13,300 nt of DNA from Nitrospirota bacterium (lineage in GTDB: Bacteria; Nitrospirota; UBA9217). The stretch covers positions 1 through 13,300 of the forward strand of contig JAOUEV010000075.1 of assembly GCA_029858565.1 (NCBI GenBank), given 5' to 3'. The notes beneath the pieces were generated by a model, which searched no databases, was not told the origin of the DNA, and saw only the letters and a list, made by a program, of their open reading frames with translations. Position numbers and translations under genes: made by a program. Numbering within the stretch: the first letter of the stretch is position 1; every line of letters starts with the position of its first letter. Shown piece by piece: positions 1-13,300 of this stretch.

Positions 1-35
1 CCCCCTCACCCAGCCCTCTCCCCGAGGGGAGAGGA
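1..35. repeat. REP-like palindromic element (CCCCTCACCC-AGCCCTCTCCC...GGGAGAGG type); may also act as the hairpin ending trxC transcription
   Basis: Inverted arms CCTCTCCCC (15-23) and GGGGAGAGG (26-34), preceded by CCCCCTCACCCAG. This resembles a widespread bacterial intergenic repeat. It lies just past the stop of the minus-strand thioredoxin and may be cut by the window edge. Confidence 0.55.
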
Positions 36-41
36 TAAAGA

Positions 42-488
42 TTACAATCCTACAAACCTGTCCACCCACTGCAAGAATTCAAGTTTTTCCTTTGGCGCGC
101 CGTCCATCCTGCCGAGGTGGCCCCCGTTCTTGAACATGATAAAGGTCGGGGTCGCGCGGGTCTGGAAACGCCGGGACAGCTCAGGTTCAGCGTCCACGTC
201 GATCTTCAGAACCTTCAGCCTGCCCGCTTTCCAGTTGGCAATATCGTTCACCACCGGCTCGATCATCCTGCAGTAGCCGCACCATTTGGCCCAGAACTCG
301 ACCAGAAGGAATTCCGGCCATGTTGACAGCTCCCGGTCGAATGTGGCGGTCGTGCCGTTTACCGGCGCGTGGGGAACCGTCAGGGGGGTCTTGCAGGTGC
401 CGCAGTGGGGCTGTTCCGCGATGCGCGAGCGGGGGACGCGGTTCAGGGTGGAGCAGCCGGTGCAGCGGATGAGGACGGTGTCGGGCAT
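42..488 (-). CDS. trxC: Thioredoxin 2 (TrxC) with N-terminal zinc finger
   Basis: N-terminal CTGC...NR(V)P...CGTC Zn-binding motifs, VEFWAKWCGYC active site, cis-Pro loop ATPTF; 148 aa. Confidence 0.9.
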   Translation of the reverse strand: MPDTVLIRCTGCSTLNRVPRSRIAEQPHCGTCKTPLTVPHAPVNGTTATFDRELSTWPEFLLVEFWAKWCGYCRMIEPVVNDIANWKAGRLKVLKIDVDAEPELSRRFQTRATPTFIMFKNGGHLGRMDGAPKEKLEFLQWVDRFVGL

Positions 489-493
489 GGATC

Positions 494-522
494 AATATAA
501 CCTGATTACTTTTCTCGCGCAA
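494..522 (-). promoter_or_regulatory. Putative sigma70 promoter for trxC (TTGCGC-17 nt-TATATT), probably leaderless
   Basis: On the minus strand, -35 TTGCGC (522-517), a 17-nt spacer and -10 TATATT (499-494), then only 5 nt to the ATG. No Shine-Dalgarno is visible. Confidence 0.45.
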
Positions 523-783
523 AGCCGCTAAGACGCAAAGAACGACAAGGAGATCCGAAGGTGATTTTCTTGCAGAGATTCTTCAGCGCGGTCATTGCGA
601 GGAGCGAAGCGACGCGGCAATCCCGTAGTGTCTTGAACTTCTTAACTACGAGATTGCTTCGCGTTGCTCGCAATGACAGCTAAAGGGCTATGCCGCGCCG
701 GCTCCGGCTCTCACCCATGCTGAAAAATGCTCATGAGACAGGTTTTGTCTTTCTTCGTGACTTCGTGGCTTCGCGCGAGAAAA
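510..783. repeat. Non-coding inverted-repeat (MITE-like) element, about 274 bp
   Basis: The left end TTTTCTCGCGCAAAGCCGCTAAGACGCAAAG (510-540) matches the reverse complement of the right end (753-783: TTTTCTCGCGCGAAGCCACGAAGTCACGAAG). The outer 11 bp are perfect, followed by 8-nt AAG-ending subrepeats. Confidence 0.65.
591..677. repeat. GTCATTGCGAG...CTCGCAATGAC palindromic element (RPE/REP-like)
   Basis: Perfect 11-bp terminal inverted repeat GTCATTGCGAG (591-601) / CTCGCAATGAC (667-677), with an inner stem GCAATCCCGTAGT / ACTACGAGATTGC (1 mismatch). It matches the recognisable GTCATTGCGAGGAGCGAAGCGAC..GCAATC repeat family. Confidence 0.8.
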
Positions 784-792
784 AGATATTTC

Positions 793-820
793 GTTCCTTT
801 CCCCGGAGGGTAGAGGGAAC
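793..820. terminator. Imperfect hairpin downstream of the thioredoxin-like gene; possible terminator or degenerate REP
   Basis: GTTCCTTTCCCC-GGAG-GGTAGAGGGAAC, about 30 nt past the stop at 850. There is no clean U-tract directly after it on the minus strand. Confidence 0.3.
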
Positions 821-849
821 TTTTGGCTGATAACTTAATCACCATCCAC

Positions 850-1308
850 TCAATAACTGGTATAGCTGATTAGGTTCTCGATCCACTTAGCCAGTTCGGA
901 TTTTTCCTTGAACGGTCCATCCATGCGTATCACGAACTCCCCGGCCTTGTACACAAGGTAGGACGGCGTTTTCATGACCTTGAAGCGCTCGACCAGGAGG
1001 GCGTCGTGATCAAAGTCCACCTTCAGCACCTTGAGCTTTCCCGGATGCTTCACCATCAGTTCGGAGAGCAGTGGGTCCGAGATCCGGCAGAAGACGCAGG
1101 AGTTGGACGTAAAGGTGACCACCAGGGTCTCGGGCCAGTAGGAGACATCGCGGTCAAAGGCATCCTGCCGGGCGAAGATCGGCTGGCGCGGCACGGTCAG
1201 GACGGTCTTGCAGCTTCCGCAGCGGGGCTCGTGGTCGATGCGGGACGCTTCCACCCGGTTAAGGACCAGGCAATTGGTGCATCGTATCTTGATAAAATCG
1301 TTCGCCAT
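850..1308 (-). CDS. TrxC-like Zn-finger thioredoxin paralog with atypical active site (SCVFC)
   Basis: CTNC..LNRV...CGSC Zn finger; TFTSNSCVFC at the WCxxC position; KTPSY cis-Pro loop. The C-terminus RMDGPFKEKSELAKWI parallels RMDGAPKEKLEFLQWV of 42..488. Confidence 0.85.
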   Translation of the reverse strand: MANDFIKIRCTNCLVLNRVEASRIDHEPRCGSCKTVLTVPRQPIFARQDAFDRDVSYWPETLVVTFTSNSCVFCRISDPLLSELMVKHPGKLKVLKVDFDHDALLVERFKVMKTPSYLVYKAGEFVIRMDGPFKEKSELAKWIENLISYTSY

Positions 1309-1311
1309 GAT

Positions 1312-1623
1312 CTAGGTTGTCTTCGCCAGTTCTGCGATGCGCTCCTTGAGAAGAGAAATGCTCGGGACTTTCGAGAGTCGCCCGGACTCATTGGGATAGG
1401 CCCTTCAGGTTATGCCGGGTGAACCGGGCATAACGACAAGGTCTGTTCCGTTTATCCGGATGGTGGGGGAGCCTTTGATATCGAGGGCGACGGCCTCGTC
1501 GTAGGATATCCAGTGGAAGGCCGGTTCTGTCCTGATCCCCAGCTCCTTGAGCGCGATGCCCAGGTTCTCGCGCAGTTCATGATAGGAGCCGCAATGCTCG
1601 GAAAGATAACAATCGATGTTCAT
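1312..1623 (-). CDS. Small thioredoxin-fold (DUF2703-like) protein, predicted selenoprotein (UGA at 1407-1405 = Sec73), 103 aa
   Basis: The ORF track stops at TGA after ...GSPTIRINGTDLVVMPGSPGIT. In-frame continuation reads U-RAYPNESGRLSKVPSISLLKERIAELAKTT-TAG (1314-1312), ending 3 nt before the next ATG. Proteins with the GSPTIRING motif typically continue with C-R-x-Y...G....P, so the UGA falls at the Cys position. Confidence 0.82.
1364..1407 (-). promoter_or_regulatory. Putative bacterial SECIS element
   Basis: The mRNA reads UGA-AGGGCCUAUCCCAAU-GAGUC-CGGGC-GACUC-UCGAAAGUCCC. A 5-bp upper stem (1389-1385 / 1379-1375) closes an apical loop that starts 20 nt after the UGA and has G at its second position. 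A lower stem GGG/CCC is possible. Confidence 0.65.
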
Positions 1624-1637
1624 TCTTCAATAATATT

Positions 1638-1748
1638 TATCCACAGATTACGCAGATTTTCGCAGATGATAGAACCGGAAAACCCTATGATCTTCATAAC
1701 TGCTTTCATCCTTGGATGATATTGTCCGGCTGTCGTAATCTGCGGATA
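1638..1748. repeat. Short inverted-repeat element with CGCAGAT subrepeats
   Basis: TATCCACAGATTACG (1638-1652) and CGTAATCTGCGGATA (1734-1748) are a 14/15 inverted match. The left arm has three tandem (C/G)CAGAT-type units: CACAGATTA CGCAGATTTT CGCAGAT. Confidence 0.65.
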
Positions 1749-1761
1749 GAGATTCGCGATA

Positions 1762-2085
1762 TTATTTCCGCTTCTTCTCCGCAACGACATCCTCCACCCA
1801 CGACAAGGCAGCCGAAACCGTGGGGAAGCCGATGGTGCTGGTAAGAAGTATGACCGCGTGGCGGACCTCGTCGGGTTTCGCGCCCGCCAGGATCGCCCGG
1901 CGCGCGTGGGAGTGGACCGAGCCTTCGGACCGGACCGCGGCTGCGGCTGCGAGCTGGATCAGCTCAGCGGTCTTCTTGTTCAGGGGGCCGGCGGCCTTGG
2001 CGGCCTTGCCCAGGTTGTCAACGGCCTTGAGCACTCCCTTGTAGCGCTTCTGAAGCATCAGGTACTGCGTGGGGTATTCCTTCAT
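1762..2085 (-). CDS. Carboxymuconolactone decarboxylase / AhpD-like family protein (no CxxC)
   Basis: GPLNKKTAELIQLAAAAAVRSEGSVHSHARRA..AGA...EV...V.L...TIGFP pattern typical of the CMD family; SD AAGGAG upstream. Confidence 0.88.
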   Translation of the reverse strand: MKEYPTQYLMLQKRYKGVLKAVDNLGKAAKAAGPLNKKTAELIQLAAAAAVRSEGSVHSHARRAILAGAKPDEVRHAVILLTSTIGFPTVSAALSWVEDVVAEKKRK

Positions 2086-2131
2086 GGCGATCTCCTTGCG
2101 GTTCCCGGAGGAACGGATTGACGTTCAGGAC

Positions 2132-2160
2132 AATTTAGTATATGGGACGGAAATAGTCAA
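2132..2160 (-). promoter_or_regulatory. Putative sigma70 promoter for the CMD gene
   Basis: On the minus strand, TTGACT (2160-2155), a 17-nt spacer and TAAATT (2137-2132), about 46 nt upstream of the ATG at 2085. Confidence 0.6.
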
Positions 2161-2200
2161 GCATCTCCGTCAGGGGCACAGTGGCGAAGCTTTTCCCCGG

Positions 2201-3046
2201 TCATCGCGCCGGCTGCCGGGCCGCCGGGGACACATCCTCGATGGTCCGCTTTTCCTCGGAGGGCTGCAGGATGTTCATCAGTTTGCCGCCTGCCAGGAGC
2301 GCCAGCAGCAGCAGGATGCCGATCACGACCGCGATGACGAGCTTCCGGGACGAGGCCGCTTTTTGCTTCTCAGCGGCCGGGCCGGAATCGGTCTTGTCCT
2401 TCAGCTGTACTGTCGCGGCCTCGTCAGGATTCCAGAAGGCCTTGTAGACCTTGAAGGGCTCGGCTTTTCCCTTCAGCGTCGTGGTCTTGACGTACTTGAT
2501 GTAGGTCTCGTTCCTGTTCGAAAGGGCGTTCAGCGTGTCCTCGGACAGGGCGATCCCGCCGGGGTCTGCCGCGCCTTCGAACCGCGAAGCAGTGTTCACC
2601 ACGTCGCCGAAAATGTCGCTCTTTTCCACGATGCATCTGCCGGTGTGCATGCCCGCGCGGGCCAGGATCGGCGTTTTCTGCTTGTGCTCAAGGATGTAGG
2701 CGTCGATGCCCCGCTGGAGCTGGACAGCCGCGCGCAGGGCGTCCTGGGCGTTGTCGAAATAGGACAGCGTGCCGTCGCCGATGGACTTGACGAATATGCC
2801 GTGGTGCTCCTTGATCGCGGGGATGATGATGTCCTGATAGTGCTTCACCAGCAGGCGGCTGACGATGTCTCCCTGCTTGTCGGCCAGCGCGGTGGAACCC
2901 TTCAGGTCCGTGAACATGACAGTGATGACCTTGGTGAACTTGTCCTGGAAGGCGGCGTCCATCTTTGCACGGGATTCGAGCATTTCCTCCATTTCCCGCG
3001 CTTTGTCCTCGGCTGATTTCTGCTCCCTCTCCATATCGTCCGACAT
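2201..3046 (-). CDS. Class III adenylate/guanylate cyclase (adenine-specifying residues) with C-terminal TM anchor
   Basis: VMFTDLKGST (metal Asp), VKSIGDG (Lys and second Asp), SDIFGDVVNTASRFE (Asp, Asn, Arg) and LKGK. Charged helical N-terminus; hydrophobic LVIAVVIGILLLLALLAGG near the C-terminus; SD AAGGAG. Confidence 0.9.
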   Translation of the reverse strand: MSDDMEREQKSAEDKAREMEEMLESRAKMDAAFQDKFTKVITVMFTDLKGSTALADKQGDIVSRLLVKHYQDIIIPAIKEHHGIFVKSIGDGTLSYFDNAQDALRAAVQLQRGIDAYILEHKQKTPILARAGMHTGRCIVEKSDIFGDVVNTASRFEGAADPGGIALSEDTLNALSNRNETYIKYVKTTTLKGKAEPFKVYKAFWNPDEAATVQLKDKTDSGPAAEKQKAASSRKLVIAVVIGILLLLALLAGGKLMNILQPSEEKRTIEDVSPAARQPAR

Positions 3047-3058
3047 ATGCGGTCTCCT

Positions 3059-3892
3059 TTACTCTTTCCTCTTCCAGTCCCAATCAATATACCACGTGAG
3101 ATAGAACTCGAATCCCTTGGTACGCTCTTCCAGTATGGGATAATACTGCCAGGAGTAATCAGCTCCAATGCGGTACAAAGGTTTCTTGAGCTCCATGCCC
3201 ACCGCGGGTCCGCGGACATCATAATAGTCCTCAAGCTTCGAACGGGCCCGGTACCGGTACTCGGCGTAGGTATTCAGCACAAAACCGCCGGGCAGGGTGG
3301 TCCAGTCGATCCCCTGGTTGATCCAGCCCATGCCGCCGGAGCCGGTGACTCCCCGGGTATCATGGAACAGATTGAACCAGATCGCTCCCGGCAGGCCTGT
3401 TGATCCGGGAAAATGCACATCCGCATTTTTGGTCAGGTCCCATCCCTTGTATCCAGCCAGGTAGATCTCCCGGCTGGTCGTGCGGCGCGGTCCGTCGGGG
3501 TAGTTGGGCATGGTCTCCCAATAATAGTCCGCCCCGAACCTGAGGAAGTCCTTCTTGAACTCCATACCCACAGCCGGACCCTGGGCGCTGTAGTACTCGG
3601 GCTGGCGCGACCGGTCGCGGTACCGGTATTCGGCAAAGGTGTTCAGCACCACATCGCCGGGCAGGGTGACCCAGTCGATCCCCTGGTTGATCCAGCCCAT
3701 GCTCCCGGAACCGCTCAGGGTGCTCGAACTCTCGGTTACTACGCCCCAGGTGGAGCCGGGGTAGCCTTCGATCTCCCAGGCGAAAGCGCGATGCGGGAAA
3801 CAGAGCATGAGCGTGATGCATCCCAGGAAGAGGATAGTCGGCGTCATGCGCATTTCTGGGAGTTGTTCTTTTCTATGTTCAATCGATGACAT
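3059..3892 (-). CDS. Secreted, probably outer-membrane beta-strand-rich protein made of two tandem repeats of about 123 aa
   Basis: Signal-peptide-like segment (ILFLGCITLMLCFPHRAFA/WE). Two copies of MGWINQGIDWxTLPGxxVLNT(F/Y)AEYRYR...GPAVGME(F/L)KK...R(F/I)GADY.W, with alternating aromatic/polar strands. The start is uncertain: the ORF opens at 3931, the ATG at 3892 has AAGGA upstream, and ATGs at 3853 and 3847 are also possible. Confidence 0.7.
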   Translation of the reverse strand: MSSIEHRKEQLPEMRMTPTILFLGCITLMLCFPHRAFAWEIEGYPGSTWGVVTESSSTLSGSGSMGWINQGIDWVTLPGDVVLNTFAEYRYRDRSRQPEYYSAQGPAVGMEFKKDFLRFGADYYWETMPNYPDGPRRTTSREIYLAGYKGWDLTKNADVHFPGSTGLPGAIWFNLFHDTRGVTGSGGMGWINQGIDWTTLPGGFVLNTYAEYRYRARSKLEDYYDVRGPAVGMELKKPLYRIGADYSWQYYPILEERTKGFEFYLTWYIDWDWKRKE

Positions 3893-3934
3893 AGCTTCAT
3901 TCCTTAGAGCTCCCGGTGCTCTCTGCGCCAAAGC

Positions 3935-5491
3935 TCACTTCAGCGCCTCCCGGGACAAGTATATCCATTTCCGTTCCTTTCCGTAGAAGTAATACTCATC
4001 ATCCATCTTCACCACCAGGTTGTTCTGGTTCTCCGCTGCAAAGGATGTCTGCGGAATGCTGTCGATGAATGCCCGGGTGGCATAGCGGTCCGTGACAAAG
4101 GGGCTTTGCCCGGCAAAGGCCTCGATCGTGAACGCCAGGGAAAGATAGCTCGACGGCTTGTCTATGATCATGTTTCTGCCGGCCGCCCCGGTCCGGCGGT
4201 CCTTGCTGATCAGCTTCAACCCCACGGGCACGATGGTGATGCGGGGCAGGGGGATGTCGCGGAGCCCCGGCGTTTCTATGGCATTGCCGCGCACCGCCCT
4301 GCCGTGCTCTCCCGCGACGATCACCAGTACATCCCGTCCCGAGGCCGCGAGGGTCCCCATGAACCTCGAAAGGTCGTCAAGAAGGCTCTGGAGAAATTCC
4401 CGATACTGCTCGCGATTGTCCCGCTTCCACCACTCCCGGTCGTCGGTCCAGTGGGACCCGTCATGAAGGCTCACGGAATTATAGTACAGGGCGACCTTCT
4501 TCTCGCTTGACCTCAGGCGGTTCTTCCACCATTGTTCGAGCACGTCATAGTCTGCATAGACCGGCGTATCGTCGAACATGTACTTCCTGGCCTCCAGGTT
4601 CGACGGCGCAAAAGGCGCGGCGTCCAGGTGGCCCAACTGCCGGAGCTCCTGGTCGAATTTGCCATAGGTGCCGTTATGATTGCGGCTGAACCGGATCGCG
4701 TATCCCTGGTGACCCAGTCCCTTCATGAGCGAGCAGTCCCCGGGCAGGGTGTTGTACAGGTCGGCGTGCCTGCGCTGGCCGCAGTTCCCGTTCAGGAGCC
4801 TGATGGCCGCGGGATTGCTGTAAGTGGTTACGGTATTGAAGTTGGTGAACAGGAAGTCGAACTGTTTGAAGAATGGATGGTCCTGCATGCCCAGTTCCCG
4901 GAGATCGTCCCAGGCAAGGGAACAGATATGGAGGATGAGAATGTCGAAGTCCCGCGACGTTGCCTGCGGCGGCACCGGCCGGATGACACGCATGGACTCG
5001 GCATTGAAGAACGACCGGACATGGGCATCGACCTCATCAGGAGATCTCCTGCCGTGTTCGCCGGTGACGAAGACCAGCGGGATCAGAAGCAGGACTGCCA
5101 TGCCTGTTGCAGCCGATCTTCGGTACTTGCGGACAAGGAAGGACAGGACCGCGATAACGGTAAAGACCGCAAGTTCTTTCGGCACAAGGAGCCTCAGGAA
5201 GAATTGATAGAGATATTCCCGCGAAGGCATGCCGTTCTGCTGAAGCATGGTGATGGCATGCAGGGGGTCCGGAAGCCAGGACTCGCGCCAGATCAGCAGA
5301 ACAGCGATGATCATCGCCAGTGCCTGCTTTGCCATGAGCGCCAGCGTGCTTTCGCCAAAGCGCTTCGGCAAGGGGAAAACGATGAACGCGAGGAACAGCA
5401 GGTTCAGGAGCACATCAAGACGCACGTATCCCCGGTAATGGAGATAGAGCTTGGCCAAGAAGTAGAAGGTCCAGATTCCCATAGGTGTCAC
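3935..5491 (-). CDS. bcsG: Cellulose phosphoethanolamine transferase BcsG
   Basis: N-terminal TM region beginning MGIWTFYFLAKLYL; FDILILHICSLAWDDL; TTYSNPAAIRLL..CGQ (catalytic Ser); SLHDG; GEHG; GLRDIP. The start is GTG 5491 or ATG 5482. Confidence 0.93.
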   Translation of the reverse strand: MTPMGIWTFYFLAKLYLHYRGYVRLDVLLNLLFLAFIVFPLPKRFGESTLALMAKQALAMIIAVLLIWRESWLPDPLHAITMLQQNGMPSREYLYQFFLRLLVPKELAVFTVIAVLSFLVRKYRRSAATGMAVLLLIPLVFVTGEHGRRSPDEVDAHVRSFFNAESMRVIRPVPPQATSRDFDILILHICSLAWDDLRELGMQDHPFFKQFDFLFTNFNTVTTYSNPAAIRLLNGNCGQRRHADLYNTLPGDCSLMKGLGHQGYAIRFSRNHNGTYGKFDQELRQLGHLDAAPFAPSNLEARKYMFDDTPVYADYDVLEQWWKNRLRSSEKKVALYYNSVSLHDGSHWTDDREWWKRDNREQYREFLQSLLDDLSRFMGTLAASGRDVLVIVAGEHGRAVRGNAIETPGLRDIPLPRITIVPVGLKLISKDRRTGAAGRNMIIDKPSSYLSLAFTIEAFAGQSPFVTDRYATRAFIDSIPQTSFAAENQNNLVVKMDDEYYFYGKERKWIYLSREALK

Positions 5492-5571
5492 TCGTGCATT
5501 TCAGGATGCGATCCGGCCTAAAGAACAGTATTGAACCGCCACGGCGCCATGGAAGCGGGTAAATCTCCTCA

Positions 5572-6618
5572 TCACCTCGCTCTATTTTCCCATCCCCCTG
5601 TCGCGAGCAGATAAAGACTGAAGGAATAGTAAGCGTCCTTCTCGGTCTTGAGTCTTTTCCGCGCCTCTTTCAGGAGGCGTTCCGCGAGCGCCTTCTTGCC
5701 CAGTTTCCGGGCGGCAGCAGCATAGATGGCGTAGTACCCGGCGTAAGCGAGTTTGAGCGATTCGCTGTCCTTTTCCAGATCGATCCAGAGCGGCAGCCTG
5801 CCGCTTTTCTGGTAGTGCTCCAGCAGAGCTGAAACGCCCTTGGGATAGCGCGAACGGTCCTCGGACCCAAGCATGAGCAGGACGCGGACAGCATCTGCCC
5901 CGAAGTAGGGGTCCTTTCCCGGCGCAAGCGCGATCCGGTCGTTTTCCAGGACCACCCAGTTCGCAGGAAGGCCGAGGCTCCCGAAACTCGCCCCCTTGAT
6001 CAGGAACAGGCCGTCATTGCGCACCGCCTCCCAGAAGTCCGGTTGGTCCGCCCTGGCAAAGGCGCGGTATGCCGGGAAGATCAGGTACGAAGGATTCAGC
6101 ACCACGCTGTTACCGTCCGTGAATCCAAAGGCTCCGGGCAGCAGATAGGTGCGGCCGTACCGGGTGACCGCAAGGACCGAGCGGATGCTCGCGATGATCT
6201 TCCGCGCCTCCTCACGATAGTCCGGCGAGTGCCAGGCATCGCTCGCCTTGAGCAGGGCGAAAGCGATCAGGATATCGCCGTCGGTCGCATTGTTGCTGTC
6301 GAGCACCTTCCATGCATTGTCCGGCCTTTTTCCCCATTGCCAGGCGAACAGACCGTCGGAACGGACCTGGAGATTATTCTTTGTCCAGGTCCAGATCCTG
6401 TCAAAGGCGGCCCGGTCCCGGTGGATCGTTGCCAGCAACATGCCGTAACCCTGGCCTTCGGAATGGCTGATCTGGTCCTGGGCGTGGTCGATGATCCGTC
6501 CATCGTCGCTCAAAAAGGACCTCTTGTAGAGCTCCCACATCGTCCGGTCCCGTGCCTCAGCGATGCCGCAGAAGACGGCAGTAAGTACGAGGCAGAGGCT
6601 AATGGCCCGGAGTGGCAT
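5572..6618 (-). CDS. bcsZ: GH8 endo-1,4-beta-glucanase BcsZ
   Basis: Signal peptide; SEGQGYGML; FDRIWTWT; NNATDGDILIA; LNPSY; DAVRV. Overlaps the end of bcsB by 20 nt. Confidence 0.93.
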   Translation of the reverse strand: MPLRAISLCLVLTAVFCGIAEARDRTMWELYKRSFLSDDGRIIDHAQDQISHSEGQGYGMLLATIHRDRAAFDRIWTWTKNNLQVRSDGLFAWQWGKRPDNAWKVLDSNNATDGDILIAFALLKASDAWHSPDYREEARKIIASIRSVLAVTRYGRTYLLPGAFGFTDGNSVVLNPSYLIFPAYRAFARADQPDFWEAVRNDGLFLIKGASFGSLGLPANWVVLENDRIALAPGKDPYFGADAVRVLLMLGSEDRSRYPKGVSALLEHYQKSGRLPLWIDLEKDSESLKLAYAGYYAIYAAAARKLGKKALAERLLKEARKRLKTEKDAYYSFSLYLLATGGWENRAR

Positions 6619-8743
6619 CGCCCCCCCCCATCCGCTGTTTCCTGCGCTTCTTCAACCAAATATAAATGATCCCGCCGAATAGCACGATCGCCAGGGACAG
6701 CAGGATATAGTTGACGTATTTGTATTTGTAGAAGAAGTACTCGAGCTTGAACAGCGTTCCCGACGTTCCGGTATAGTAAGCCGGCCCGGCGGTCACGGCG
6801 TTCATGGTCTGCGAAGGGTCCTTGAGATTGATCAGCACCAGATCGCCCCGGACGCGGTCCTGCACCACCGGATCAAGCAGCGCCCGGCTCAATGCCGCGA
6901 CCTCCGTCACTCCGGCGCCGGTCAGCATGACCACGGATCTGCCGGTCTGGACCGGGGACTGGAACTGCATCACGATTCCCTGGTCCGGTCCGGGCGTGCT
7001 CGTCTGTCCGCTGAAGGCAAAGGTGGATTCGCTTTCCCAGTTGCGGACCACCGGGTAGGGGACGTTCTTTGCCGTGGCCAGCTTGAGCGGCGCCAGGTTC
7101 AGCAGGTCCTCGGGGATGGTCGCCACGTCGCCGAGCACGATCATCTCTCCTTTCCAGCGTTCGGGCCGTTCAAAGCTGACCGTTATGCCGAAGAGCGGAT
7201 ATCCGTTCTTCTGGCTGATCAGACCCACGAGGTTGAGCGCCGCGGAAAGGGTGTCGAAGTCCTTCCTGCTGGCGAAGATCACGGCTTCATATCCGTCGGG
7301 CCACCGGGTGACCGGGAATCCGTCGAGCATGAACAGCTCGAGCTTCGGCATCTCCACGAAATGAGGCATCCTGGGGAACTGGAAGGTGGAATTCTCGAAT
7401 ATGGTCAGGAAGAATCCCTCGGGCCGCAGGATATCGCATTCCTGCGCAACGGGATTGAGCGTGGGCTCGAAGCGGATCGTGTTGTAGCCCGGCTTGAAGA
7501 GATAGGTCGGCAGGTCGATGCGGTAGCCTTCGACGCTCTCTCCGTCCTGGTTCTCCAGGTGGATGACCCGGACGCTCCGGTCGTTGACCACGACGTTCAT
7601 GACCGAGTCAACGCGCATGCCCGCGCCATAGGCGAAGTTCAGGTTCAGCTTGGCGTACTGGTTCGGCTTCACCAGAAAGTCCGCGGGCAGACGGAAGGAG
7701 ATGTGGCGCGGATTGGGATTGAAGCCCGAGAAGGTGTGGCTGCTGAAGTTCAGCATTTTCAGCGTGTAGACCTTTTCGGTCGCAAGGATCTGCCTGCCGC
7801 CGTACTGGGAGATGTCGGGCAGCTTGAAGTCCCTGACGGTCATCTCGCTGCTCCCGGGGAAGGGAAGACTGACGTGAGCGAGCGTTTCCGACGCGAGCTT
7901 GATCTCCTCGGGCGTGTTCCCCGAGACGACCAGCAGGGCATGGCCCGGGTCGTACCCGCCGGAGAGCAATGGCAGCGGAAGGATCTTCAGATAGGGGCCC
8001 TTCACGGAAATGTTCATTCCCCGCTGCTGCAGGAACGACTCGGCATAGGCCTTGTTGGCGATCAGGACATTGTCCACTCCCGGCTGAAGCTCCCGGGACG
8101 CCGTGAACAGCACCTTGCGGTAATCGAACTTCCTGGCTATGCCCGCAGCGGCGATGGCGGTCATGGTGGCGGTGTCCGAGGCGAGGCCGGCGGTGATCAT
8201 GTGCACGCTGCCCTGCGGCATGACCCGCGGATCGAACAGGAAGTCGGAGAGCGTCGAGAGACGCATGGGCACGGGCTTCAGATCGTAGGTGAGCTCCAGG
8301 GACGAGTCGTAGAGGTTCACCGTGGTCCAGAGGTTCGGGGCGCATACCTGTTCGCACTCGGCCGCGTAGTGCTGCACCGCAACGATGTTCATCATGTTGT
8401 AGCCGGGATGCAGGATCTGAGGCGCGATGTTCAGTTGTTTCCTTCCCGACGGCGTCTTGCGGTCCAGCCGGATCTGGCCGAGCGGCTTGCCGTTCATGGT
8501 GACGAGCAGATGGGAACGGTCGCCCATCATGCTGGCGGAGTTGGCATAGTCCAGCGTCAGCACCGCCTTGGTCACGTTCCAGCGCTCAGGCACGGGCACC
8601 GCGATCTCGTACTGGCCCTGGGTGCACCGCAGGTCGACCGACGTGACCGGCGCGAGCTTGGTCAGGGGCACCTTGTAGACCTCTGCCTGGGCCGGCGCGG
8701 CCAGGCACCATGCTGCGATCGTTGCAATGATGAGCTTTTTCAT
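6599..8743 (-). CDS. bcsB: Cellulose synthase periplasmic subunit BcsB
   Basis: Signal peptide; two jelly-roll repeats ending HPGYN and KPGYN; QHYAAEC...LWT; FRLPADF; Cys at the BcsB disulfide positions; C-terminal TM followed by KKRRKQR. ATGA overlap with bcsA. Confidence 0.9.
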   Translation of the reverse strand: MKKLIIATIAAWCLAAPAQAEVYKVPLTKLAPVTSVDLRCTQGQYEIAVPVPERWNVTKAVLTLDYANSASMMGDRSHLLVTMNGKPLGQIRLDRKTPSGRKQLNIAPQILHPGYNMMNIVAVQHYAAECEQVCAPNLWTTVNLYDSSLELTYDLKPVPMRLSTLSDFLFDPRVMPQGSVHMITAGLASDTATMTAIAAAGIARKFDYRKVLFTASRELQPGVDNVLIANKAYAESFLQQRGMNISVKGPYLKILPLPLLSGGYDPGHALLVVSGNTPEEIKLASETLAHVSLPFPGSSEMTVRDFKLPDISQYGGRQILATEKVYTLKMLNFSSHTFSGFNPNPRHISFRLPADFLVKPNQYAKLNLNFAYGAGMRVDSVMNVVVNDRSVRVIHLENQDGESVEGYRIDLPTYLFKPGYNTIRFEPTLNPVAQECDILRPEGFFLTIFENSTFQFPRMPHFVEMPKLELFMLDGFPVTRWPDGYEAVIFASRKDFDTLSAALNLVGLISQKNGYPLFGITVSFERPERWKGEMIVLGDVATIPEDLLNLAPLKLATAKNVPYPVVRNWESESTFAFSGQTSTPGPDQGIVMQFQSPVQTGRSVVMLTGAGVTEVAALSRALLDPVVQDRVRGDLVLINLKDPSQTMNAVTAGPAYYTGTSGTLFKLEYFFYKYKYVNYILLSLAIVLFGGIIYIWLKKRRKQRMGGGDATPGH

Positions 8744-11043
8744 GGCAGGGACTCACTCCTTTTCATACGGGCATGGTATGCCTGCAGCCGGAGCACAAGG
8801 GCATGCAGGCGGATCCTGGCGGTTGGCAAAGCTGATTTGGCAAGGTACGCGATCCGCTCGGCGCTTCCCCGCGCTCCGCGCAGCATGAAATGATAGAGGT
8901 CGCGGGACGTGAAGCGGATGGAATGCACCGGTTTGAACCGGTCCGCAAGGATGTCGGCCCAGCGCTTGCTGTCGCCGTACACGAAATTCACGATGTCCGG
9001 GTAGGTCCTGTCGTCGAGCGCGAACTCGATGCCCATGTGGGTCCGTCCGGCCTGCTCCCTGCGCGAGCGGATGCGCGAGATGAGGTTGTGGCGGATGCCG
9101 TAGCTGTCCGTGGCCTCCACGCGCACGTCCTCGCCCAGGAGCGCGGGGAAAAGGTCGTTCAGTTCCACGCCGATGCCGGTCAGGGACAGGTCGTGGATCG
9201 TGCCCGGGATCGTGCGGTCCAGGTCGGGAAAGTACACGTCAACCGAGCCTTTTGACCGCACGCGGTGGTGCTGGCGGAGCTGCTGCCGCTCCCAAAAAGC
9301 CCCCAGCGTGATGAGCCCCAGCAGCAGGTTGTAGAGACACCACACAAAGGCGATAAAGATGACGTCGCGGAACAGGGGATAGGCCACCCACTTCACCGCA
9401 GCGAACCCGATGCCGATCAGGTTCAGCAGGCAGATCATGAAAAAGACCGTGGCCATGGGGTTCAGGTACTCGTGATCAACGGTCTTGCCCTTGGGTGTGA
9501 TCTTGAACTTGGGCTTCCGCGGGTTGAAGATCGCGGAGATGACCGCGGGCGTGAGGAAGAGCGCCTGCACGCTCTCGTAGATCTCCGAGAAGAATCGCCT
9601 GCGGTAGCGGCCGTAGAAGAAGTCCATGACTGTGAAAACGCTCAGCACGTGGGGCAGGGCGTAGGCAACGATCTGGGCCACCGAGGCGTGGTAGACCTTC
9701 TGGCCCAGGATCAGGAACAGGCCGGGCCCCAGGTAGAAGGTGAACCGGGCCAGGCAGAAGAGCCAGAAGAAACAGGCGTTGAAATAGCACATCTTCTGTT
9801 CCCAGGACAGGCCTTTTGCGAAGAGCGGGTTGTTCAGCACGAAGATCTGGACCATGCCCTGGGCCCAGCGCGTGCGCTGGACGATATAGTCGCCGAAGGT
9901 CTCGGGTGAGAGGCCGCAGATCATGGGCCGGTCGATGTACACGCTGTTGTAGCCCTTGTTGTGCAGCCGGAGCGAGGTCTCGGCGTCCTCGGTGATGGTC
10001 TCGCCCGCGATGCCGCCGGCGTCCACCAGGAACTGCCGACGCAGGACCGCGGCGGAGCCGCAGAAGTACGCGGAGTTCCAGAGGTCCATGCCCGGCTGGA
10101 TCGCGTGGTAGAACATGTCGTTCTCGCCCGGAGCGTTGGAGAAGGAACCGATGTTCTTCTCCACCGTGGTGGTGTTGATGAAGAAATGCGGTGTCTGGAC
10201 CAGGAAGAGCTTCGGGTCCTTCAGGAACCAGCCCGCGGTGTTCTTCAGGATGTCCCGGGCAGGCACGTGGTCGCAGTCCAGGAGCAGCAGCAGGTCGCCG
10301 CTGATCTTGGTCAGCGCGTGGTTGATGTTGCCCGCCTTGGCGTGTTCGTTGTTCTCCCGGGTCAGGTACCGCGCGCCCAGGTCCCGGGCGATGCGCCGGA
10401 GCTCGTAGTAGCGCTCCCAGGCCGCGGTCGAGGTCTCGGGAGCGCTCCGCCGGCTGTCCGTGCTGCCGTCGTCGAGAACGTAGACGTTCACCTTGTCCCG
10501 GGGATAGTCGATCTGCATTGCTGCGGTCACGGTCAGCTTGATGATCTCCGGATCCTCGGTGTAGGTCGGGATAAGAATATCCACGGAAGGATAGACCGAC
10601 GGATCGTCGGGCAGCGGGGCCGGCTTGCTCTCGAGCGGCCAGAGGCTGATGAACATGCCGAGGAAGTGGATCGTGAGGGAATAGCATTCGGCAAGATAGA
10701 TGAGCAGCATGCCGATCATGTCCAGCGGGCCGGTGTAGATCAGCGTGTCAAAGGTCCTCCAGAGGAAGTAGCGGAAGGAGATGACCGCGACCGTGAAGAT
10801 GAAGAGGAACCGGCCGGGCGCGTTGCCAAAGGATGCCCGGCGGTTCAGGATGATGGCAACGATAAGGAAGCCCCAGCTGAAGGTGGACTCGGCCGGGACA
10901 TTCAGGAACCGGTCCAGAAGATAGATCACCAGCACGACGCCGCCGGTCAGGAGGCCGTAGAAGGCCGCGGGACGCAGAACGTTCTCGCTAAAGGGAATGT
11001 CCTTGTGCGGGCTTTCAGTATGCAGCGCCGGACTGGGGTCCAT
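8740..11043 (-). CDS. bcsA: Cellulose synthase catalytic subunit BcsA (GT2 + PilZ)
   Basis: IPTY, LDDG, HAKAGNIN, DCDH, QTPH, FCGS, TED, QRTRW, FKITPK gating loop, and PilZ motifs RQHHR and DLSLTG. The ORF is open from TTG 11220, but its first 59 codons look non-coding, so ATG 11043 is preferred. Confidence 0.95.
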   Translation of the reverse strand: MDPSPALHTESPHKDIPFSENVLRPAAFYGLLTGGVVLVIYLLDRFLNVPAESTFSWGFLIVAIILNRRASFGNAPGRFLFIFTVAVISFRYFLWRTFDTLIYTGPLDMIGMLLIYLAECYSLTIHFLGMFISLWPLESKPAPLPDDPSVYPSVDILIPTYTEDPEIIKLTVTAAMQIDYPRDKVNVYVLDDGSTDSRRSAPETSTAAWERYYELRRIARDLGARYLTRENNEHAKAGNINHALTKISGDLLLLLDCDHVPARDILKNTAGWFLKDPKLFLVQTPHFFINTTTVEKNIGSFSNAPGENDMFYHAIQPGMDLWNSAYFCGSAAVLRRQFLVDAGGIAGETITEDAETSLRLHNKGYNSVYIDRPMICGLSPETFGDYIVQRTRWAQGMVQIFVLNNPLFAKGLSWEQKMCYFNACFFWLFCLARFTFYLGPGLFLILGQKVYHASVAQIVAYALPHVLSVFTVMDFFYGRYRRRFFSEIYESVQALFLTPAVISAIFNPRKPKFKITPKGKTVDHEYLNPMATVFFMICLLNLIGIGFAAVKWVAYPLFRDVIFIAFVWCLYNLLLGLITLGAFWERQQLRQHHRVRSKGSVDVYFPDLDRTIPGTIHDLSLTGIGVELNDLFPALLGEDVRVEATDSYGIRHNLISRIRSRREQAGRTHMGIEFALDDRTYPDIVNFVYGDSKRWADILADRFKPVHSIRFTSRDLYHFMLRGARGSAERIAYLAKSALPTARIRLHALVLRLQAYHARMKRSESLP

Positions 11044-11260
11044 TGTTGCTCTCTTCCCGGGCTTCCCGCGGCCGGCCGTCCTGGGCCGCGGAAAAGGATG
11101 GAAAACAACATGCGCTCCCGACGGCCTGACTGCGGCATGGACCAGGATGGAGCGCACTGAATACTGGAGCGTCCGCTGTCCGGGTTTCTTAAGACCACGG
11201 TTCCTGCGAACGCTTCGCAAAGATCATGCAGGGATCAAGACATTCCCTGTCCTTTCTTCG

Positions 11261-11269
11261 ATTATAACA
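11261..11269 (-). promoter_or_regulatory. Extended -10 promoter for the bcs operon (TGtTATAAT)
   Basis: The minus strand reads TGTTATAAT, a perfect -10 hexamer with a TGn extension, about 217 nt upstream of the bcsA ATG at 11043. Confidence 0.6.
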
Positions 11270-11312
11270 TAAGAGTTTTAATGCCGTGGGATTCCTGGGG
11301 ATTCCGCGGATA

Positions 11313-11321
11313 TGCTACACT
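11313..11321 (+). promoter_or_regulatory. Extended -10 promoter (TGcTACACT) for a leaderless SAM synthetase mRNA
   Basis: TG-C-TACACT, then 6 nt (TGAACC), then the ATG at 11328. No SD. Confidence 0.55.
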
Positions 11322-11327
11322 TGAACC

Positions 11328-12530
11328 ATGATAATCATCGAACCATATGGTGCGCGGCCGGTAACGGACCAGCGGGTGGAGATCGTTGAGCGCAAGGGCG
11401 TGGGCCACCCGGACACGCTTTGCGATTCCATGATGGAGGCGGTATCCATCGCGCTCAGCAGGGAATACCGCAAGACCTTCGGCACGATCCTCCATCACAA
11501 CATCGACAAGGGCCTGCTCGCCGCGGGCAGGGTGGAGAAGCGTTTCGGCGGCGGCAAGGTGACGGAGCCCATGGACCTCATCATCGGCGACCGGGCGACA
11601 TGGTCGGCCGGAAAGAAGCGTATTGACGTTGAAAAGATCGCTGTCGCCGCTGCGCAGGAATGGCTTGGCAGGAACATGCGCTTTGTTGATCCCAAGAAGC
11701 ATGTGCGCTATCGGGTCGTGCTGCGCCAGGGGTCCGAGGAACTGACGGATATCTTTTCACGCAAAGGGAAGGTCCTTGGCGCGAATGACACCTCTGCCGC
11801 AGTGGGGTATTACCCCTTAAGCCCCACGGAGCAGGCAGTGCTGGGGCTGGAGCGTTTTCTCAATTCAGCTGACTTCAAGAAGATCTTTCCCGAGACCGGC
11901 GAGGACATCAAGGTCATGGGCCTGCGAACAGGAGATGACCTGGACATCACGGTGGCCATGCCGATTCTGTGCAAGTACGTAAATTCGGAAAAAGAGTACT
12001 TTGTGCGAAAAGCGATCATCCAGCGGATCATGGAAGGTTATCTTGACAGGTTCACCAGCTTCAAGTCTGCGGCGGTCAACTTCAATACCCTTGATGTGAT
12101 TGGCAGGGATATGAACGGCATTTACCTCAGCCTGCTCGGCACCTCAGCCGAGGACGCGGACTCGGGCCAGGTGGGCCGCGGCAACCGCGTGAACGGTCTC
12201 ATCTCGTTGAACCGGCCCATGGGTACGGAAGCGGCCGCAGGCAAGAACCCCGTAAGCCATGTAGGAAAGATCTACAACGTCCTGGCCCATAGGATCGCGC
12301 AGCGCATATATAAGGAAGTAGGCGGCCTGCGGGAAGTGCAGGTGCTGCTGCTCTCGCGCATTGGCGCGCCGATCAATGAACCCCAGACAGCCTCGGCGCA
12401 GGTGCTGCCGGTCAAAGGAAAGGTGACGGGTTCGATCGTCAGAAAAGCGGAGAAGATCATGCAGCGGGAGCTGAATGGGATCGCGAAGTTCTGCGGGGAG
12501 TTGAGCAGGGGGGATTATCCGGTGTGCTAG
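11328..12530 (+). CDS. mat: Archaeal-type S-adenosylmethionine synthetase (methionine adenosyltransferase)
   Basis: EIVERKGVGHPDTLCD, ILHHNIDK, ANDTS, GEDIKVMGLR, GTSAEDADSGQVGRGNRVNGLI, EAAAGKNPVSHVGKIYN and SRIGAPINEP are motifs of the archaeal MAT family. Canonical bacterial MetK instead has ESVTEGHPDK and GAGDQG. Confidence 0.93.
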   Translation: MIIIEPYGARPVTDQRVEIVERKGVGHPDTLCDSMMEAVSIALSREYRKTFGTILHHNIDKGLLAAGRVEKRFGGGKVTEPMDLIIGDRATWSAGKKRIDVEKIAVAAAQEWLGRNMRFVDPKKHVRYRVVLRQGSEELTDIFSRKGKVLGANDTSAAVGYYPLSPTEQAVLGLERFLNSADFKKIFPETGEDIKVMGLRTGDDLDITVAMPILCKYVNSEKEYFVRKAIIQRIMEGYLDRFTSFKSAAVNFNTLDVIGRDMNGIYLSLLGTSAEDADSGQVGRGNRVNGLISLNRPMGTEAAAGKNPVSHVGKIYNVLAHRIAQRIYKEVGGLREVQVLLLSRIGAPINEPQTASAQVLPVKGKVTGSIVRKAEKIMQRELNGIAKFCGELSRGDYPVC

Positions 12531-12584
12531 GAACGCGGCGCTGACGCGCCGCATGGCGCGTCGCAGTCGAGCGCCAGGTTATTT
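12528..12584 (-). mobile_element. Integron attC site (57 bp), last of the array
   Basis: The minus strand reads AAATAAC-CTGGC-GCT(C)GAC-TGCGAC-GCGCC-ATGC-GGCGC-GTCAGC-GCCGC-GTTCCTA: R'' AAC, 5-nt spacer, L'' with one extra base pairing to L', a terminal hairpin, and R' GTT. It overlaps the stop codon of the cassette ORF. Confidence 0.85.
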
Positions 12585-13077
12585 ATCCTTCTGCTTCTTG
12601 TTTCGCTTCATACCAAGTCTTATATTGTTTGGCCCATTCAAGATTATCGGCTTTCCATTGTTTGTTAATTTGAACGCCTTCCTTCGCGTTTTTCTCCAAG
12701 CCACGATACTTTTTGAAAATTGAGAACGGCTTTATTAACCAGAAGAGCCAGTTGGGGATTTCTGTTGGTGTTTCCGAACCGTTTTCAATTGCACGGCATA
12801 CAAAATGATATGATCGTTCTTCGTCACCGCTTTTAGACCAATATCTGGCAGACAGCAAGAGCATGTCTAAATCATTCGGAAAACGGGCAAGGTATTTATC
12901 TGCATATATTATCGAATTGGCAATATCGTCGCCCCATTCATAACAATAGGCGAGCATGGCAATCGCAAAGTAATCTTCCTTGTTTTCACTCAGCATGCGC
13001 TTGCATGATTCGATGGCGGCGGGATAATTCTTAGAACCAATTGCCCTTGCTGCTTTCATTTGTTCTCGAAATGACAA
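12583..13077 (-). CDS. Integron cassette gene: hypothetical TPR-like alpha-helical protein
   Basis: 164 aa, TTG start with SD AGGAG, visibly AT-rich compared with the flank. Helical repeats (NYPAAIESCKRML; AMLAYCYEWGDDIANSIIYADKYLARFPND) look TPR-like. It fills the space between two attC sites. Confidence 0.75.
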   Translation of the reverse strand: MSFREQMKAARAIGSKNYPAAIESCKRMLSENKEDYFAIAMLAYCYEWGDDIANSIIYADKYLARFPNDLDMLLLSARYWSKSGDEERSYHFVCRAIENGSETPTEIPNWLFWLIKPFSIFKKYRGLEKNAKEGVQINKQWKADNLEWAKQYKTWYEAKQEAEG

Positions 13078-13098
13078 CGTGGCTCCTATTCAATACAA

Positions 13099-13155
13099 AA
13101 ATAACACGGCGCTGACGCGCCTCAAGGCGCGTCGCAGTCGAGCGCCAGGTTAATT
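13099..13155 (-). mobile_element. Integron attC site (57 bp)
   Basis: The minus strand reads AATTAAC-CTGGC-GCT(C)GAC-TGCGAC-GCGCC-TTGA-GGCGC-GTCAGC-GCCGT-GTTATTT. Only 3 differences from 12528-12584 in the 43 nt between the core sites, two of them in the loop. Confidence 0.88.
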
Positions 13156-13300
13156 TACTCCATGTTCCATTTGCCATCGTGGTATTTCAGTCGCTTTTGT
13201 TCTCGTGCTTCATAAGTTGCCTTAGAATAATGAGGGGAATTCACATCATGCGAATCCTTGCTGAACGATATTTCTGTTTCGCTTATCCAGTGAACATCAG
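13155..13300 (-). CDS. Partial (3' end) hypothetical gene of the next cassette
   Basis: Open frame from the window edge (...DVHWISETEISFSKDSHDVNSPHYSKATYEAREQKRLKYHDGKWNME) to TAA at 13157-13155, which abuts R'' of the attC. AT-rich; not in the ORF track. Confidence 0.6.
   Translation of the reverse strand, partial: DVHWISETEISFSKDSHDVNSPHYSKATYEAREQKRLKYHDGKWNME

Follow-up and report, generated by a model that had tools for sequence, protein, structure and literature searches.

By which route does cellulose leave a Gram-negative cell that has no BcsC? Many Gram-negative cellulose producers lack this protein, and in the relevant parts of PMC8892547 and PMC7112194 their outer-membrane route is treated as unknown. 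The question is raised again by a stretch of 13,300 nucleotides (nt) from a Nitrospirota bacterium (contig JAOUEV010000075.1, positions 1 to 13,300; hereafter the window), in which the genes bcsA-bcsB-bcsZ-bcsG-X follow one another in this order on one strand. An earlier note, made from the sequence alone, had put gene X forward as a candidate pore for BcsC-independent cellulose export. In our analysis X is very probably a 12-stranded outer-membrane beta-barrel of two homologous halves, and it probably takes the place of the BcsC barrel as the exit for cellulose. The outer-membrane location, the open lumen, the passage of cellulose and, in shorter relatives, the pairing of single halves are what we infer from the results below. 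The gene and its parts are as follows.

Positions 3059 to 3892, minus strand: gene X, encoding a 277-residue precursor of a predicted 12-stranded outer-membrane beta-barrel; stop codon at 3059-3061 (open reading frame with translation, AlphaFold2 model).
Positions 3779 to 3892, minus strand: signal peptide of X, residues 1-38, with charged N-region, hydrophobic core and AFA; cleavage predicted before WEIEG.
Positions 3407 to 3775, minus strand: repeat 1, residues 40-162, barrel strands 1-6 plus linker (identity at offset 123).
Positions 3062 to 3406, minus strand: repeat 2, residues 163-277, barrel strands 7-12, C-terminal WDWKRKE.
Positions 3671 to 3702, no strand assigned: 32-nt exact repeat, copy in repeat 1, encoding MGWINQGIDW.
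Positions 3302 to 3333, no strand assigned: 32-nt exact repeat, copy in repeat 2, encoding MGWINQGIDW.

The start codon of X is the ATG at 3892; an alternative TTG at 3931 would lengthen the protein by 13 residues. The signal peptide is recognizable by the features named earlier, a hydrophobic stretch and then AFA before WEIEG, and in the homologs the repeat begins directly after an AxA-like site. The internal duplication described in the earlier note was found again in every respect. The two 32-nt copies are identical, lie 369 nt or 123 codons apart and cannot be extended to a longer exact match; by simple arithmetic, the chance of such an exact repeat in about 830 nt is roughly 1e-14. A repeat search returned a direct repeat of 106 nt (3239-3344 versus 3608-3713) with 86% identity. 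On comparison of the protein with itself, 55 of 154 positions are identical at an offset of 123, versus 8-14 at offsets of 121, 122, 124 and 125, and the aligned halves of about 120 residues each are 53% identical. The half endings IYLAGYKGWDL and FYLTWYIDWDW read as claimed, and so does the final KRKE, which had been given as a caveat since it stands in place of a terminal aromatic residue.

MGWINQGIDW, the peptide encoded by the exact 32-mer, is the best-conserved motif of the X family. Its degenerate codons are the same in both halves (7/7; p ~0.03 from codon bias alone). Over residues 61-100 the same codon is used at 20 of 27 identical residues, versus 12.6 expected; over residues 101-125 it is used at 3 of 14, versus 6.5 expected. 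Since synonymous identity is raised only around the motif, the nucleotide identity of the 32-mer can mostly be ascribed to strong protein conservation together with codon bias, and a recent duplication or gene conversion as its origin is mostly rejected. A short tract of intragenic conversion is perhaps present as well.

An AlphaFold2 (AF2) model of X built with an alignment of 53 sequences has a mean pLDDT of 93.0 and a pTM of 0.80. It consists of a helix in the signal peptide (residues 18-31) and 12 long strands of 11-17 residues each, arranged as 6+6 antiparallel strands with the same topology in repeat 1 (45-55, 63-77, 81-94, 103-114, 117-128, 136-152) and in repeat 2 (168-178, 186-200, 204-217, 226-236, 240-251, 256-272). 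Foldseek against the PDB returned 34 matches at E<=1e-3. All were outer-membrane barrels, led by 12-stranded autotransporter beta-domains and including KdgM, VhGalP, LpxR, intimin/invasin, Tsx, PcoB and the polysaccharide porin PgaA. Structures were also compared with VIA-align, over 48,161 representative chains and in a second look over the Foldseek top 1000, with the best 50 rows kept each time. All of these rows were transmembrane barrels, and the two lists agree. The matches of most interest were the following (rmsd, root-mean-square deviation).

PcoB (PDB 7pge): Z 12.4, rmsd 3.6 A, 182/198 residues, 8% sequence identity; top match.
BrkA beta-domain: Z 12.2.
OmpG: Z 12.1.
VhGalP: Z 10.6, 3.8 A, 181/210 residues.
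KdgM: Z 9.4-10.0.
NanC: Z 8.3.
PgaA: Z 7.7 (Foldseek E 3.1e-4).

The AlgE and PelB barrels were absent from the best 50 rows of either full-model list. The earlier note had left a choice between one pseudo-two-fold barrel and two small barrels in tandem. Barrels of 12 strands superposed best. Because solved single 12-stranded barrels, among them PcoB and VhGalP, superpose across both halves, the model is best read as one barrel, whose closure and pore size would be those suggested by the superposition; the tandem arrangement found no support. Nor is the predicted structure a soluble domain, an outcome that, by the earlier note, would have refuted its proposal: the model is confident and its structural matches are transmembrane beta-barrels throughout. 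X thus has the signal peptide and the even number of amphipathic strands expected of outer-membrane beta-barrels in general, its closure being taken from the superposition.

Hydrophobic and polar residues alternate along the strands, which are amphipathic as had been stated. By strand parity, most of the Trp, Tyr, Leu and Phe residues would lie on the lipid face. The idea that aromatic residues guide the glucan is thus not supported. On the putative lumen face the best-conserved residues are the Glu/Arg ladder of strands 3 and 9, Asp, some Tyr and several invariant Gly. Conservation there reaches 94% for E88 and R92, 98% for R94 and G120 and 100% for G109, and the repeat-2 equivalents behave likewise.

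The four genes preceding X in the window are these.

Positions 8740 to 11220, minus strand: bcsA, GT2 cellulose synthase with PilZ domain (TIGR03030 803 bits, above cut-off; GT2 and PilZ domains); translation probably begins further downstream than the listed TTG.
Positions 6599 to 8743, minus strand: bcsB (PF03170, E 2e-114).
Positions 5572 to 6618, minus strand: bcsZ, GH8 periplasmic endoglucanase (PF01270, E 1.3e-64).
Positions 3935 to 5491, minus strand: bcsG, phosphoethanolamine transferase for cellulose (PF11658, E 1.5e-128; TIGR03368, 408 bits versus a cut-off of 410).

X follows bcsG directly, with a gap of 42 nt. There is no BcsC in the window, and PF05420, the family of the BcsC barrel, had no match in the organism's own genome (100% complete, 144 contigs), with E. 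coli as a positive control. By Pfam annotation of the window and of the genome loci described below, the operons that carry X encode no other outer-membrane candidate.

X itself has no Pfam match at E<=0.01 and no NCBIfam match. A word-index search gave 117 related clusters at E<=0.001 among 365 candidates, none of which has a precomputed Pfam domain; where the source names them, all are 'hypothetical' save P0062, labelled 'stress response protein SCP2'. An exhaustive search yielded 102 representatives. The profile of 53 relatives had no match at E<=10 among PDB sequences, and a Pfam scan of these 53 members at E<=10 gave scattered noise only, with nothing for X itself; PF05420 was absent among the 25 listed of the 34 families that appeared. 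By these Pfam scans X has no sequence similarity to the BcsC barrel. Literature searches, with limited coverage of subscription journals, found no description of the family. X thus represents an undescribed family within a known functional kind, the synthase-dependent polysaccharide porins, with the pore function assigned by inference.

The relatives are tied to cellulose genes. We examined 33 loci in GTDB species genomes with the window's own Bcs proteins in tblastn and annotated 99 open reading frames around them with Pfam (numbers with L denote loci, those with P relatives of X). The loci come from Thermodesulfobacteriota, Nitrospirota, Nitrospinota, Elusimicrobiota, Bdellovibrionota, Krumholzibacteriota and unclassified metagenome-assembled genomes, i.e. 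from six or more phyla. A bcs gene adjoins X in 29/33 of them, and bcsG in 21/33. In a metagenome scan with 69 further loci, a bcs gene adjoins X in 53/69, and in 30/31 of the loci of at least 6 kb. The link of homologs to polysaccharide synthase loci, on which the earlier proposal depended, was thereby borne out. Three layouts recur: bcsA-bcsB-bcsZ with bcsG-X or cyclase-bcsG-X; a minimal bcsA-bcsG-X without bcsB; and bcsA, a membrane protein of no known kind and then a gene with only a single half of X. X also occurs without bcsG (L001, L018, L030-L033).

Further evidence comes from fusions. Among the 27 long or otherwise atypical relatives (263-1459 residues) of the exhaustive search, of which the 263-residue P0170 may be a fragment, 16 have an array of tetratricopeptide repeats (TPRs) followed by a C-terminal X. 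Seven of 15 fusions have TPR parts with a weak match to the TPR region of the BcsC model, and no match to the barrel region of that model was seen. L029 has the order bcsA-bcsB-bcsZ-[TPR-X]-bcsG; in L050, L051, L052, L060, L070, L072 and L117 X comes after bcsB or bcsZ, and in L065 X is followed by bcsG, with no bcs match upstream. TPR-X thus occupies the operon place of BcsC with the architecture of BcsC, and the BcsC-like layout of a bcsA operon with TPRs before the barrel is found in the X family. Three relatives (P0129, P0138, P0188) have an N-terminal, peptidoglycan-binding SPOR domain, in one case in addition to TPRs, which fits a barrel with a periplasmic N-terminus. In P0124 and P0142 a Cds6_C/NTF2-like domain is fused to the C-terminus of X; it would be periplasmic as well if the number of barrel strands is even. 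Finally, a PF05420 barrel was found in none of 11 carrier genomes (the window's own and 10 others; E. coli control positive). Together with the TPR fusions in the BcsC slot, this supports the BcsC-independent reading of the earlier note.

From these data the following mechanism can be proposed. X would be exported by Sec and then fold into a single 12-stranded outer-membrane barrel with pseudo-two-fold related halves, as the outer-membrane component of a bcsA-bcsB-bcsZ-bcsG-X secretion system without BcsC. BcsA would polymerise the glucan, BcsG would probably add phosphoethanolamine to it in the periplasm, and the chain would exit through the lumen of X, which would be lined by Glu/Arg ladders, Asp, Tyr and several Gly. 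Some related organisms carry the X barrel behind a long TPR array, as a BcsC-like protein, and in organisms with single-half genes one half would presumably pair with a second copy into the same barrel.

Several observations weigh against X as a cellulose pore. The completeness of the 10 carrier genomes other than the window's own is not known. X in the window is itself without TPRs, and its operon offers no TPR partner. The Foldseek TM-scores are low (0.25-0.52), and BcsC is absent from the best 50 rows of either VIA list. Narrow, plugged or enzymatic 12-stranded barrels occur, and OMPLA, LpxR and PagL score Z 8.4-10.4 against X. The protein ends in WDWKRKE, lacking the terminal aromatic residue usual in proteobacterial barrels, and the family consensus is WDLKK; in more detail, the family ends in W-Y-x-W-D-L and then 2-4 basic residues, and the last strand shows an alternating aromatic pattern. 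No bcs gene was found at 4/33 genome and 16/69 metagenome loci. The majority are short contigs or carry X close to a contig end, which in 3 of the 4 genome loci lies within a few hundred bases of X; in L019, X sits between V-type ATPase genes and uvrD.

Alternatively, X might belong to the Bcs system as a genuine outer-membrane barrel without being the conduit: it could anchor or dock periplasmic machinery such as BcsG or TPR scaffolds, or hold phosphoethanolamine-cellulose at the surface while the polymer left elsewhere. The bcsG link is the tightest of all, with 21/33 genome loci and the minimal bcsA-bcsG-X operons, the SPOR and TPR fusions show that the N-terminus of X engages periplasmic partners, and a 12-stranded X is smaller than the solved exopolysaccharide porins, whose barrels have 16-18 strands. 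Yet no other candidate for the exit is encoded in the operons, X also occurs where bcsG is missing, conservation is concentrated on the putative lumen face, and TPR-X copies the architecture of BcsC and PgaA, in which the barrel is the pore according to the relevant part of PMC8892547. We consider a non-conduit role unlikely.

Far less probable is that X is a lipid enzyme or lipid-handling barrel of the PagL/LpxR/OMPLA type that acts as a partner of BcsG, which consumes phosphatidylethanolamine. The structural matches to OMPLA (Z 9.7-10.4), PagL (Z 9.7) and LpxR (Z 8.4) would agree with this, as would a diacylglycerol kinase gene that adjoins bcsG-X in L025 and L026. But these Z-scores are no better than those of plain porins, only Trp, Gly and Gln occur as invariant columns, with no conserved catalytic set of the His/Ser/Asn type, and neither the TPR fusions in the BcsC slot nor the loci without bcsG fit such an enzyme. 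We see just as little room for a protein outside the membrane, be it a cellulose-binding tandem beta-sandwich in the periplasm or at the surface, or a chain with two separate small barrels. X is rich in Trp and Tyr and has no terminal aromatic residue, and the model of a single half weakly matches soluble avidin-like barrels (Z 6-7). Against this stand the 34/34 Foldseek matches (E<=1e-3) and the best 50 VIA rows of each list, all transmembrane barrels, the single 12-stranded barrels that extend across both halves in superposition, strands of 11-17 residues with a lipid-like outer face, and a half of 115 residues that has only 6 strands.

With X thus taken as a probable cellulose exit, its relation to known systems can be described. 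KdgM, NanC and VhGalP, which are oligosaccharide porins, have the same size and strand number as X and superpose well on it, and they are examples of 12-stranded barrels through which a linear sugar chain can pass. Unlike X they serve oligosaccharide uptake, lie outside synthase operons and have no reported internal duplication. X does not belong to the KdgM/NanC sequence family, as it has no Pfam match at E<=10 and 7-9% identity in the structural alignments. Judged by the fold, X resembles these 12-stranded sugar porins. PcoB, which acts in copper efflux, is the best structural match but has an unrelated genomic context, and the shared fold is silent on function.

Judged by the operon slot and the TPR fusion, X may work in a way similar to the barrels of BcsC, PgaA and PelB. 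The barrels of PgaA, PelB and AlgE have 16-18 strands; they belong to other families and, like AlgK/AlgE as a whole, are unlike X in not being internally duplicated. What PgaA, PelB and AlgK/AlgE share with the X family, following the part of PMC8892547 that deals with them, is a TPR scaffold with an outer-membrane barrel, fused or split. BcsC (PF05420; 19 TPRs and a C-terminal barrel), the cellulose exit of type I and II Bcs systems, is found in the same operon and slot as X, after bcsZ and beside bcsG, and shares the layout of TPRs followed by a barrel with the relatives of X, and the two barrels never occurred together in the 11 genomes searched. In contrast to the BcsC barrel, which has 16 strands (PMC8892547), the AF2 model of X has 12, and X lacks a PF05420 match. 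It also has a clean internal 6+6 duplication and stands alone without TPRs in the window.

The X family therefore provides a concrete and testable candidate for the outer-membrane route of BcsC-less cellulose producers. Because there is no alphaproteobacterial record among the 33 titled genome records with X, the case of BcsK is not solved by this family alone. As a compact export module, bcsA-bcsG-X could also be of use for engineering modified cellulose.

The earlier note had suggested a search for homologs with a single repeat, and such homologs exist. They are complete genes of about 135-160 codons with a signal peptide and one repeat, and they are found beside bcsA and bcsG at 7/33 genome loci. 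The AF2 model of a single half (pLDDT 83.4) has six strands with the topology of each half of X. Its structural matches are middling, the best (Z 8.4) being parts of 8-stranded barrels, so that the model shows a barrel-like sheet only; PelBC reaches Z 5.4, and the weak matches to soluble avidin-like barrels have been mentioned. Since the known types of outer-membrane barrel need more than six strands to close, the natural assumption is that single halves would pair into a barrel.

Among the 53 proteins with two repeats, the mean similarity is higher between the halves of a single protein (0.60) than between corresponding halves of different proteins (0.49). In a FastTree tree of the 106 halves and 20 single-half proteins, which is unrooted and has no support values, the clade of the window's X splits into a repeat-1 and a repeat-2 clade. 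Another clade groups the two halves of every protein as sisters, with single-half proteins nested among these pairs. The pattern corresponds either to repeated duplication and loss or to concerted evolution. A plausible, if tentative, interpretation is that the X family is a living series from half-barrel to whole barrel: proteins of about 115 mature residues and six strands would assemble as outer-membrane barrels of two or more chains, and would have been duplicated into 12-stranded chains more than once or have been kept alike by conversion. It is supported by the part of the tree in which sister halves and nested single-half proteins occur together.

If this holds, X would provide the first 2x6 outer-membrane barrel from nature and the clearest example of barrel growth by duplication of a whole half, and with the bcsA-bcsG-X loci without bcsB it would form a minimal three-gene system to make, modify and export cellulose across a Gram-negative envelope. 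To our knowledge, no two-chain 2x6 barrel has been described. Kin in idea are the multi-chain barrels of TolC and of trimeric autotransporters such as YadA, as far as assembly from several chains is concerned. Among the 138 solved barrels surveyed by Franklin et al. (2018, PMC6340704), internal repeats were all shifts by a single or double hairpin; common to that paper and to the present reading is the idea of barrel growth by duplication, with homo-oligomers as the early barrels. X differs from the barrels treated there by a 6+6 duplication of a whole half, about 50% identity and extant single-half relatives. For protein evolution it hence offers a barrel with clearly homologous halves and living single-half relatives, a combination not found among these 138 structures (PMC6340704).

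Two families with a superficial likeness to X were considered as its possible home. ESM Atlas look-alikes of X include a BcsS cluster (0.93), and BcsS proteins have a similar length (226-256 residues) and a signal peptide and, like X, are associated with cellulose operons. They differ by a canonical Y-x-G-F ending and by having no internal repeat. PF17036 (BcsS) had no match in X, its own genome, 5 carrier genomes or the scanned family members. For comparison, 5 BcsS sequences were drawn from 200 genomes belonging to the same phylum as one of the carrier loci; the hhalign probability against them was 4.4% over 21 columns, and the assignment of X to BcsS was rejected. The other is DUF481 (PF04338). 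The single-half relative P0181 scores 24.5 bits versus the cut-off of 21.1; X and 34 other scanned proteins are below the cut-off, with a sub-threshold match in P0198 (12.6 bits, E 0.14), and 1 of the 53 two-repeat members has a weak match (E 0.032). Against 11 DUF481 domains fetched from 151 genomes, hhalign gave 0.1% for the two-repeat forms, and a DUF481/YdiY-like identity of X was rejected as well; for single-repeat forms the value was 29% over 46 columns.

Some of the related loci have features of their own. In L002, L010, L015, L017, L021, L025 and L026, which have bcsA-bcsG-X, no bcsB was found within the stretch examined, and in several of these loci BcsA has two PilZ stretches; a cellulose synthase without BcsB would be unusual in diderm bacteria. 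In L025 (9961-10788) and L026 (10300-10824) a prokaryotic diacylglycerol kinase gene and then mscL come directly after bcsG and a single-half X. This would fit a recycling of the diacylglycerol that is left when BcsG removes phosphoethanolamine from phosphatidylethanolamine. L030-L033 are single-half loci with no BcsG match. In L030, X comes directly after bcsA, and in L031-L033 the two are separated by a gene for a protein of 470-515 residues without a family match, save for PMT_2 (GT-C-like) in L031. This intervening protein may be a different polymer-modifying enzyme.

In the window's own lineage, the X profile matched 1 of 40 relatives besides the own genome and none of 24 in the same family. 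This patchy occurrence suggests that the X operon was acquired horizontally. The sole other match among the 40 relatives (G039:C98:36708-37091, L035) is a single-half copy broken by one TAG stop.

The remaining genes of the window are listed here with their positions.

Positions 2201 to 3046, minus strand: class III nucleotidyl cyclase with C-terminal membrane helix (PF00211, E 1.6e-18), 12 nt downstream of X.
Positions 11328 to 12530, plus strand: S-adenosylmethionine synthetase of the PF01941 type (E 4.7e-160), divergent neighbour of bcsA.
Positions 42 to 488 and 850 to 1308, both minus strand: two neighbouring thioredoxin-2-like genes, each with an N-terminal zinc ribbon.
Positions 1762 to 2085: gene of the CMD family (AhpD-like).

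The PF01941 type of S-adenosylmethionine synthetase is the form typical of archaea. The cyclase is probably co-transcribed with X. By tblastn, homologs of it (45-84% identical) adjoin bcsG-X or bcsA in 10/33 genome loci and in several metagenome loci. A cyclase of the cAMP/cGMP type is thus kept in an operon that is otherwise under the control of c-di-GMP through the PilZ domain of BcsA.

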